DNA of 64,000 nucleotides from Escherichia phage FL23, in sequence record PP400787; one strand, 5' to 3'. Below the pieces are notes generated by a model that worked only from the letters and a program-made list of their open reading frames with translations, had not been told where the DNA came from and did not search any database. This document shows positions 55,832 through 58,768 of the stretch, one piece after another (the stretch's first letter is position 1; every line of letters starts with the position of its first letter). The translations under genes and the position numbers were made by a program.

Positions 55832-56634
<803 letters not shown>

Positions 56635-56635
56635 T

Positions 56636-56689
56636 GTTTACTTCCTCCAAGGGTTTTGATACTATACATTCATCAACTACTTGGAGGAA
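56636..56689 (+). promoter_or_regulatory. Early promoter with SD-sequestering stem-loop (PeSL-like)
   Basis: GTTTACT, 17-nt spacer, TACTAT (56660-56665); 10-bp inverted repeat 56642-56651 / 56680-56689 whose 3' arm contains SD GGAGG. Confidence 0.6.
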
Positions 56690-56692
56690 ATT

Positions 56693-56795
56693 ATGACCCG
56701 TCCGAAGCGTCCATTGCGATAAGTCAAGCACGCTTAGATAAAAAATTGCTCAACGCCCGACTTGGTACAAATACTTTGGTAAATCAATTTACTAA
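56693..56795 (+). pseudogene. denV: denV (endonuclease V / pyrimidine-dimer glycosylase) relic: start codon context plus about 30 C-terminal codons, frameshifted
   Basis: ATG-ACC-CGT (MTR) then out of frame; frame A reads [12 protein letters not shown], frame B (after A6 run 56740-56745) reads [16 protein letters not shown], matching my recollection of T4 DenV C-terminus (...[32 protein letters not shown]); about 105 internal codons are absent. Confidence 0.6.
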
Positions 56796-56801
56796 GGAAA
56801 A

Positions 56802-56987
56802 ATGAAAATGTATCAAGAATTTATCGTTGAAGCAGATGCCAAAGGTCCTAAATTTAAAGTTAAAGCTTTCATTGGTGATGCGGAAGACTTTGGCTCATTA
56901 AAACGTAATGGGTATTCTTTCTTAGGTGGCGATGGTAAAGAAATCAAAACACCTATGCAAAACGTAGTGAAATTGCTTATGTTGTAG
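56802..56987 (+). CDS. Internal-protein-like capsid-targeted protein (CTS MKMYQEFIVE...), possibly truncated by frameshift
   Basis: 61-aa ORF with SD aagga; a second open frame 56939-57064 continues with protein-like sequence. Confidence 0.5.
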   Translation: MKMYQEFIVEADAKGPKFKVKAFIGDAEDFGSLKRNGYSFLGGDGKEIKTPMQNVVKLLML

Positions 56988-57067
56988 CAAGTCCTAAAGT
57001 AGATGTTGACGATATTGGATATGATTTTAACAACTTCGGAATTATTTCTGGCGGTAAAGCTTAAACG

Positions 57068-57097
57068 GTTTACGCTTAAGTATTAATATGGTATAAT
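57068..57097 (+). promoter_or_regulatory. Early promoter
   Basis: GTTTACG, 17-nt spacer, TATAAT (57092-57097). Confidence 0.6.
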
Positions 57098-57125
57098 TAC
57101 TCTATCAAAACAAACAAGGAAACAT

Positions 57126-57428
57126 ATGAAAACGTATAAAGAATTTATTACTGAAGCGCGAGTGAGTGCAGGTAAATTATATGCCGCTATAAATAAAAAG
57201 GCCCATTCATTTCATGATTTGTCCGATAAAGACCGTAAGAAACTTGTAAGCCTTTATATTGACAAAGAGCGTATTCTCGCTCTTCCTGGCGCTAATGAAG
57301 GTAAACAGGCAAAGCCTTTGAATGCTGTTGAAAAGAAAATTGATAACTTTGCTTCTAAATTCGGTATGTCTATGGATGACCTTCAGCAAGCGGCTATCGA
57401 AGCAGCTAAAGTAATTAAAGGTAAATAA
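57126..57428 (+). CDS. Internal-protein-like capsid-targeted protein (CTS MKTYKEFITE...; IPII-like size)
   Basis: 100-aa ORF with SD aagga and CTS-like N-terminus. Confidence 0.6.
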   Translation: MKTYKEFITEARVSAGKLYAAINKKAHSFHDLSDKDRKKLVSLYIDKERILALPGANEGKQAKPLNAVEKKIDNFASKFGMSMDDLQQAAIEAAKVIKGK

Positions 57429-57430
57429 CA

Positions 57431-57460
57431 GTTTACTTTCTCCTAGAATTGTGATAGTAT
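57431..57460 (+). promoter_or_regulatory. Early promoter
   Basis: GTTTACT immediately after the stop of the previous gene, 17-nt spacer, TAGTAT (57455-57460). Confidence 0.5.
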
Positions 57461-57541
57461 ATTCATAATTACTTGGAGGGGTAAATACAGAAATGGACAA
57501 TTCATGCGCCACGGAATGGCCCAACATAAAAGAGAAACTAA

Positions 57542-58093
57542 ATGAGAACATTTTTAACTGGACCTTATCTATCCCTGATGAATGCTTTTACACACCATTC
57601 TGATGCTAGAGTAGAAGAAATTTGTAAGAACGGTTATGTCCCACCATTTGAAGATGTACTCAAGCAGTACTGTACACTTCGTTTAGACGGCGGCAGACAA
57701 TCAGGTAAATCAATTGCTGTGACTAACTTCGCTGCTAATTGGTTGTATGATGGCGGAACTGTTATTGTTCTTTCTAATACTTCAGCTTATGCTAAAATTT
57801 CTGCTAAAATTTCTGCTGGCAACATTAAAAAAGAATTTTCTCGTTATTCTAGCGATGATATTCGATTCCGTTTATTTACTGATTCTGTTCGTAGTTTTAT
57901 TGGCAATGAAGGTTCTAAATTCCGTGGATTAACGCTTTCTCGTATTCTGTACATAATTGACGAGCCTATTAAAGCTCCTGATATGGATAAGATTTACAAT
58001 GTCCATATTAAAACAGTCCAACACTGTTGCAAAAGCAAATATTGCATCGGCGGTAATGCTCGTCCTCAATTTTTTGTGATTGGAATGCAATGA
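57542..58093 (+). CDS. Small P-loop NTPase-like protein (183 aa)
   Basis: Walker A-like GGRQSGKS and Walker B-like ILYIIDE. Confidence 0.5.
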   Translation: MRTFLTGPYLSLMNAFTHHSDARVEEICKNGYVPPFEDVLKQYCTLRLDGGRQSGKSIAVTNFAANWLYDGGTVIVLSNTSAYAKISAKISAGNIKKEFSRYSSDDIRFRLFTDSVRSFIGNEGSKFRGLTLSRILYIIDEPIKAPDMDKIYNVHIKTVQHCCKSKYCIGGNARPQFFVIGMQ

Positions 58094-58398
58094 TGACCAC
58101 TATTGAAGTTTTTGAATATTGTTATAACAGCCCAGTATGCAATAAAAGGGCTCTTGTAGAAAATTACGAGATTTACCATTTTAAACCTAAACGATATCGT
58201 TTGACTAAAGGTCCGTTCGCAGGGCAGCAGGTTCTTTGTACTGCTCCTAATGCACGGTTAATGACTAGTATTCCGCATTTCAAAATGGAATTTATTGATG
58301 GGCCATTTAAGGGATTAATCACTCAAAGTTTAATGGCGTTTAATTCCGACCCATTTTTGATTAAAGAAAAAACTTGGATAAATTTATTTTCTAATTGA
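58090..58398 (+). CDS. Hypothetical protein (102 aa)
   Basis: ORF with ATGA coupling to upstream gene. Confidence 0.5.
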
Positions 58399-58405
58399 GG
58401 TTATT

Positions 58406-58768
58406 ATGAAAGCATATCAAATTCTTGAAGGTGCACATAAAGGCACTATTTATTTTGAAGACGGTACTCAAGCCCGGATTATTGTCTCTAAGACTTTTAA
58501 AGAAGACGCTATTGTAGACCCGGAAATTTTCTACGGTTTGCATGCCCGTGAAATTGAAATTGAACATCAACCTAAAGTTAAAATTGAAGGTGGTCAACAT
58601 CTGAACGTTAACGTTCTGCGTCGTGAAACTCTGGAAGATGCAGTTAAGCATCCGGAAAAATATCCGCAGCTGACCATCCGTGTATCCGGTTATGCAGTTC
58701 GCTTTAACTCTCTGACTCCGGAACAGCAGCGCGACGTTATCGCTCGTACCTTTACCGAGAGTCTATAA
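58406..58768 (+). CDS. Autonomous glycyl-radical cofactor-like protein (GrcA/YfiD-like; T4 Y06I-like)
   Basis: C-terminal 60 residues (...[60 protein letters not shown]) carry the glycyl-radical motif RVSGY; SD gagg. Confidence 0.75.

Follow-up and report, generated by a model that had tools for sequence, protein, structure and literature searches.

We analysed a 64,000-nucleotide stretch of the genome of Escherichia phage FL23 (PP400787), referred to here as the window, and concentrated on a locus at which nudE, e (lysozyme), a 93-aa gene with a capsid targeting sequence (CTS), a remnant of denV, an orthologue of RB69 ORF125c and an IpII-like gene follow each other in this order. It corresponds to the classical internal-protein (ip) region of T-even phages, and the ORF125c orthologue lies within its e/ip/denV hyperplastic segment, beside other ip genes. 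The coordinates of the features are collected in Table 1. The sequence around the lesion described below matches that of phage FL44 (PP400790) at all of 491 nt (100%) and has 95–99% identity with those of more than 200 RB69-like T-even coliphages. Over 20 kb, no record but FL44 is near-identical to FL23; the two differ by one SNP (57329) and by the length of one T run. The internal proteins of T-even phages have been described as injected proteins of diverse kinds, acting in anti-restriction or defence, which have the CTS alone in common, with IPI* versus GmrSD as an example (PMC3012670; PMC6024577), and they are poorly conserved among the relatives of T4 (PMC9026906). In T4 IPIII the first 10 residues are enough to load the protein into the prohead core; in the T4 CTS, targeting is governed by positions 4 and 7 and processing by positions 8 and 10, and the prohead protease gp21 cuts after L/I-X-E (PMC9026906).

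Table 1. Features of the ip locus of phage FL23 (positions in the window).
Feature	Position	Strand	Basis
CTS gene of 93 aa (MKTYSEFL...), intact; control for lesion frequency	56353–56634	+	phrog_3499 internal head protein, E=1e-46
denV (endonuclease V) remnant, directly upstream of the ORF125c orthologue	56693–56795	+	Alignment with Pu-Krd-SF5 (intact denV)
Truncated RB69 ORF125c orthologue, CTS-bearing internal head protein (ORF)	56802–56987	+	Alignment to intact orthologues; phrog_2667
CTS, codons 1–10 (MKMYQEFIVE)	56802–56831	+	I-x-E motif at its end; cleavage predicted after Glu10
Lesion site: A4 run (A2 in intact relatives)	56946–56949	+	DNA alignments
Displaced C-terminal remnant: ancestral 38 codons (NTYAKRSEIAYVVASPKVDVDDIGYDFNNFGIISGGKA) and stop	56948–57064	+	Alignment; own start codon absent
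Second A4 run, earlier proposed as the lesion	56959–56962	+	Unchanged in all intact relatives aligned
IpII-like CTS gene of 100 aa (MKTYKEFI), intact, downstream	57126–57428	+	phrog_7857, E=3.6e-54; PF26874 Phage_T4_IpII

The ORF125c orthologue encodes a product of 61 aa, MKMYQEFIVEADAKGPKFKVKAFIGDAEDFGSLKRNGYSFLGGDGKEIKTPMQNVVKLLML, which ends in GKEIKTPMQNVVKLLML before the stop codon at 56985–56987. It is overlapped by a second frame, which is open from 56939, directly past a TAA at 56936–56938, and reads RNQNTYAKRSEIAYVVASPKVDVDDIGYDFNNFGIISGGKA up to a stop at 57062–57064; the displaced C-terminal frame contains NTYAKRSEIAYVV. Concerning the start, we place it at the first ATG (56802), which is the only ATG in the orthologues of VR7, STP4-a and NicPhage and is the one used in the RB69 annotation. 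The second ATG (56808) was rejected as a start: the divergent orthologues have the first ATG only, and the CTS requires it. Public annotations (FL44, JM10, G4498, ST0, Pu-Krd) nevertheless begin at 56808 (MYQEF...), dropping two residues of the CTS. Read from the first ATG, the decapeptide resembles MKTYQEFIAE, including the key residues 4 and 7, and Y4, E6, F7, I8 and E10 do not vary among the aligned orthologues. The L/I-X-E motif of the prohead protease is found at positions 8–10 as I8-V9-E10, followed by Ala at the predicted site.

The intact form of the gene is a single ORF of 86 aa, MKMYQEFI(V/I)EADAK...GKEINT(Y/C)AKRSEIAYVV...GGKA, in G4498, ST0, Shinka, RB69 and Pu-Krd-SF4. RB69 ORF125c (NP_861815.1, RefSeq ‘internal head protein’) is annotated as 86 aa from the first ATG. 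Full-length orthologues, with 65–86% identity over 86–87 residues, are also found in other genera: VR7 (Gaprivervirus), STP4-a and Melville (Gelderlandvirus), and NicPhage. The product of the second frame is identical or near-identical to the C-terminal 38 residues of the 86-aa protein in the relatives inspected, and therefore it is protein-like for a reason other than chance; at the DNA level the remnant is base-for-base identical to intact ST0. The profile matches follow the same division, since the 61-aa product matches phrog_2667 (‘internal head protein’) with E=6.6e-12 over profile positions 1–48 only, whereas the repaired 86-aa sequence matches it with E=1.9e-19 over positions 1–79. The 61-aa product thus falls short of a full-length family match, while the whole gene is present in the DNA in frameshifted form. 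Based on these alignments and profile matches, the gene at 56802 is assigned to the RB69 ORF125c group (phrog_2667) as a disrupted member. A preliminary description of this DNA had suggested a CTS gene cut short by a frameshift, and the relatives, which cover the downstream frame as part of one ORF, bear this out. The stop of the ORF and the opening of the second frame that it reported were recovered on re-translation, and the joined protein of about 87 aa that it predicted has its counterpart in the 86-aa intact orthologue.

Where that description placed the lesion is a different matter. In the DNA alignments there is one length difference between FL23 and the single-ORF relatives (G4498, ST0, Shinka, RB69 and Pu-Krd-SF4), all of which are without two A's at 56946–56949: the relatives have GAAATC-AA-CACCT and FL23 has GAAATC-AAAA-CACCT (ATCAACACC and ATCAAAACACC, respectively), so that the codons ATC-AAC-ACC of the relatives become ATC-AAAA-CACC. 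The lesion is a 2-nt AA insertion, and the frame is shifted after Ile48; residues 1–48 of the 61-aa product are native and residues 49–61 (KTPMQNVVKLLML) are out of frame. The preliminary description had proposed that one extra A in the A4 run at 56959–56962 (GCAAAACGT) would join the frames. This run is identical in all intact relatives that were aligned, which rules it out as the lesion, and the change differs from the proposed one in site, in sign and in size. Adding one A does join the two frames arithmetically, as had been stated, but it does so anywhere in the overlap and does not restore the ancestral sequence.

The distribution of the allele was examined with a 71-nt query across the lesion site, which matched 147 records of a phage collection. 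Seven of these carry exactly the AA-insertion allele (100% identical over the 71 nt) and the remaining 140 do not have the two A's; those inspected among the 140 contain the intact 86-aa ORF. The carriers are FL44 and JM10, from pig faeces in Denmark, and Pu-Krd-SF1, 2, 5, 6 and 7, from piglet faeces in Russia. Also, the exact truncated product (59/61 aa) with the same AA insertion is present on two ENA metagenome contigs (L017 and L018; ERZ28616113 and ERZ27280748). An early stop, which the preliminary description had named as evidence against a frameshift if shared by the homologues, is found only in the seven records and the two metagenome contigs, and there it belongs to one derived allele. 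The Russian carriers have an intact denV and two upstream amino-acid differences (P16S and R35H), while denV is deleted in the Danish ones.

These occurrences bear directly on whether the lesion is a sequencing or assembly artefact, that is, a homopolymer miscall in a genome which truly encodes the intact 86-aa protein. The lesion does sit in an A-run, and the T6/T7 length difference from the near-identical FL44, about 1.1 kb downstream, indicates some homopolymer uncertainty in the assemblies. A change of +2 in a run of just two A's is however atypical of homopolymer error, and the allele is not confined to one assembly or one technology: it is identical in seven records from two unrelated projects in different countries and in two short-read metagenome assemblies. 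We consider the artefact extremely unlikely, and the read error implied by the preliminary description is at odds with the recurrence of the allele in independent projects and metagenomes. Because it has been seen in unrelated projects, countries and metagenome assemblies, the AA insertion is a genuine, naturally circulating allele.

The T6/T7 difference itself lies at 58064–58069, with T6 in FL23 and T7 in FL44. FL44 annotates a fused CDS of 858 nt, which is matched by PF26834 (Phage_T4_Y06J), whereas two overlapping ORFs stand in its place in FL23, JM10, ST0 and others. In FL23 these are 57542–58093 (183 aa, with a P-loop-like GGRQSGKS) and 58090–58398 (102 aa, Y06J-like). Either the T run of FL44 contains a homopolymer error, or the phages differ by a second, real frameshift polymorphism. 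Further on, a 120-aa ORF (58406–58768) is an autonomous glycyl-radical cofactor gene (GrcA/YfiD-like, PF01228) and is so annotated in FL44 and JM10.

With a real allele, the two frames could in principle still be read as one: a programmed or compensated −1 shift within 56939–56984 would yield a full-length protein of 87 aa, perhaps alongside the short form. Lys-tRNA is prone to slippage on A-runs, and the 49-nt overlap contains two A4 runs; the downstream frame is also still pristine. No slippery heptamer of the type X XXY YYZ was found in the zero frame of the overlap (56937–56985), no homopolymer longer than four is present in its 49 nt, and ATG, GTG and TTG are all absent from the downstream frame. 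The two-frame layout is not conserved either, since the insertion is absent from 140 of the 147 records and the relatives inspected have a single ORF, and the frameshifts of other phages are at different positions, as random lesions would give. The pristine state of the downstream frame is accounted for by a recent mutation; the frameshift indeed appears to be evolutionarily recent, because the downstream DNA is still identical to that of intact ST0. Recoding as a source of the full-length protein is, on this evidence, highly improbable, and ribosomes may still slip by −1 spontaneously, at trace level, where the new A4 run lies.

The neighbourhood of the gene has been altered as well. The denV gene, whose product is a UV repair enzyme, is annotated at the same place in RB69, ST0 and SF5; in FL23 about 310 nt have been deleted between imperfect 13-nt direct repeats, AATTATG(A/C)CCCGT, and 1 nt has been lost further on. 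What is left is a 9-codon ORF, MTRPKRPLR (56693–56722, with its stop), and an out-of-frame C-terminal piece; FL44 and JM10 annotate a 49-aa ‘hypothetical protein’ (56656–56805) across the remnant. G4498 and Shinka share this denV deletion but not the AA insertion. All four combinations of presence and absence of the denV deletion and the AA insertion occur among close relatives, at sites about 250 bp apart, so that the four-gamete test fails, which indicates recombination or recurrent mutation inside the ip locus.

Concerning the transcription of the locus, a promoter-like site (57069–57097), which agrees with the consensus at 10 of 12 positions, precedes the IpII-like gene. With this site in front of the gene, the frameshift should have no polar effect on it. 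A scan of 56300–57600 found no terminator. A candidate early promoter upstream of the denV remnant (GTTTAC at 56636–56641 and TACTAT at 56660–56665) was noticed by eye only and discarded, as the consensus scan did not flag it. Two T4 late-promoter motifs, TATAAATA, are located just upstream of e (55868), at 55834–55841 and 55847–55854, 13 nt apart; from them late transcription could run through the locus. This motif is enriched across the 64,000-nt window, with 23 matches where about 10 would be expected.

Where the gene is intact, the segment which FL23 no longer reads in frame is conserved. Based on the Nei–Gojobori method applied to the intact orthologues, dN/dS of the segment past the frameshift is 0.10–0.27 (dS 0.6–1.9) and comparable to that of the upstream part (0.05–0.14). 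The C-terminal 38 residues are under purifying selection in these phages, as the dN/dS of 0.10–0.27 indicates.

The gene has nevertheless been damaged repeatedly in close relatives. In JS09 (JS09_057; 601–717 of its locus), 144 nt have been deleted in frame between TCCTAAA repeats, which leaves a 38-aa form that corresponds to phrog_35655, and OLB35 (601–864 of its locus) has an in-frame stop within a replaced N-terminal segment. Indels of 1 nt are found at three other positions on metagenomic and isolate contigs; one of these forms (P0007) is present on 8 contigs, another (P0009) on a contig of 167,973 bp with about 5,600x coverage, and the third is P0005. A 60-nt in-frame deletion between AAAACGTA repeats is found on one contig (P0004), and in a further case (P0012) a denV::ORF125c fusion protein has been formed. 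These natural lesions (JS09_057, OLB35, P0004, P0005, P0007, P0009 and P0012) all disrupt or shorten the same gene, and each differs from that of FL23 in position and mechanism. They are independent events, at least six in number besides the FL23 lesion. Since it has been hit by several independent lesions elsewhere, ORF125c is probably dispensable.

As a control for lesion frequency we used the neighbouring 93-aa CTS gene, for which the same database search returned four full-length clusters and one short one, the latter on a 1.2-kb contig. Damaged forms make up 8 of 12 clusters for ORF125c and 1 of 5 for the control (Fisher p=0.13); counted by member sequences, which are not independent samples, the numbers are 10 of 50 and 1 of 80 (Fisher p=0.0003). 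The contrast is a suggestive hint of dispensability specific to this gene, or of selected loss.

Selected loss could take two forms: the intact injected protein may be costly or sensed by host defence, or the basic 61-aa product may be newly active. Several observations fit with adaptive loss or neofunctionalisation of this kind. The lesions look concentrated in ORF125c, the persistence of the allele spans two countries and recombinant backgrounds, and the truncated product retains the CTS, with the computed pI after CTS removal changing from about 6.4 to 9.5. The cluster-level test is however not significant and the member counts are not independent, and the same pattern follows from relaxed selection acting on a gene that is not essential. 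Moreover, 140 of the 147 isolates are unshifted at this site, and the lesions are heterogeneous, some of them being in-frame deletions that spare the C-terminus, so that no single outcome seems to be selected. We regard adaptive loss or neofunctionalisation as unlikely. The wider proposal, that ORF125c is a hotspot of recurrent, selected inactivation with at least seven lesions of independent origin in Mosigvirus genomes and metagenomes against a neighbouring CTS gene of similar size that is nearly always intact, we regard as quite unlikely. If it were true, the injected protein could be one that a host defence system senses, or one that is costly on some hosts, and its loss could be an escape route; the locus would then point naturally to a new pair made up of a protein injected by the phage and a sensor of the host.

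The orthology, the position and nature of the indel, its independent occurrence, selection on the lost segment and the lack of recoding signals are established by the results above, and the reading which we consider very probable is ordinary truncation, or pseudogenisation, of a non-essential accessory gene by a real, circulating 2-nt insertion. By analogy with T4 IPI, IPII and IPIII, the intact protein would be taken up by the prohead core and trimmed after Glu10 by the prohead protease; it would then be injected together with the DNA and would probably act against defence systems. The AA insertion (ATCAACACC to ATCAAAACACC) causes translation to stop 13 codons after Ile48, giving 61 aa in place of 86 and leaving the conserved 38-residue C-terminus, for which there is no start codon, untranslated. 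A dispensable gene has thus been lost or severely truncated, presumably with loss of function, within the ongoing decay of the hyperplastic region.

The truncated product is without the conserved C-terminal half and has 13 nonsense residues after residue 48; as it keeps the CTS and 38 native residues (11–48), it could still be packaged and have partial or altered activity. The mature intact form would comprise 76 aa after the predicted removal of the CTS. A Pfam scan assigned neither the intact nor the truncated protein to a family, a PDB sequence search with the orthologue profile gave chance matches only (E ~0.3), and a literature search for ‘ORF125c’ found no papers. The AlphaFold2 model, built from a 4-sequence alignment only, has a mean pLDDT of 53.9 and a pTM of 0.45, a quality too low to judge from it whether the lost part belongs to the fold.

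The truncated allele is already in public records, where the 59/61-aa ORF is called ‘hypothetical protein’ or ‘internal head protein’ and carries no pseudogene flag. The correct annotation is a frameshifted ORF125c orthologue with its lesion at 56946–56949. The locus is a small, clean example of how T-even internal-protein loci decay, through short-repeat deletions, small indels and recombination of alleles; its importance would be wider only if the recurrent loss of ORF125c proves to be selected.

Compared with known systems, the gene resembles those of T4 IPI, IPII and IPIII in beginning with the decapeptide MK(T/M)YQEFI(x)E with its I-x-E motif (PMC9026906; PMC3012670), in being small and in its location in the e-ip-denV region, and it is likewise non-conserved and dispensable in character. 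No sequence similarity to the three T4 proteins was detected outside the CTS. They are CTS-targeted, processed by gp21 and injected, and IPI* inhibits GmrSD; for ORF125c, presence in the virion is predicted. Also, the intact mature ORF125c protein is near-neutral to acidic (pI ~6.4), in contrast to the basic IPII and IPIII of T4. The closest comparison is with RB69 ORF125c and its orthologues (VR7 ORF127c, STP4a_116 and Melville gp114), with which the FL23 gene shares its place after denV and before the next ip gene. Residues 1–48 of FL23 are near-identical to those of RB69 ORF125c, with few substitutions (e.g. I9V and D15G), and the out-of-frame remnant corresponds exactly to residues 49–86 of ST0 and differs from RB69 at two residues. 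Unlike RB69 ORF125c, the FL23 copy has a 2-nt insertion after codon 48, and a 13-residue nonsense tail replaces the conserved 38-residue C-terminus.
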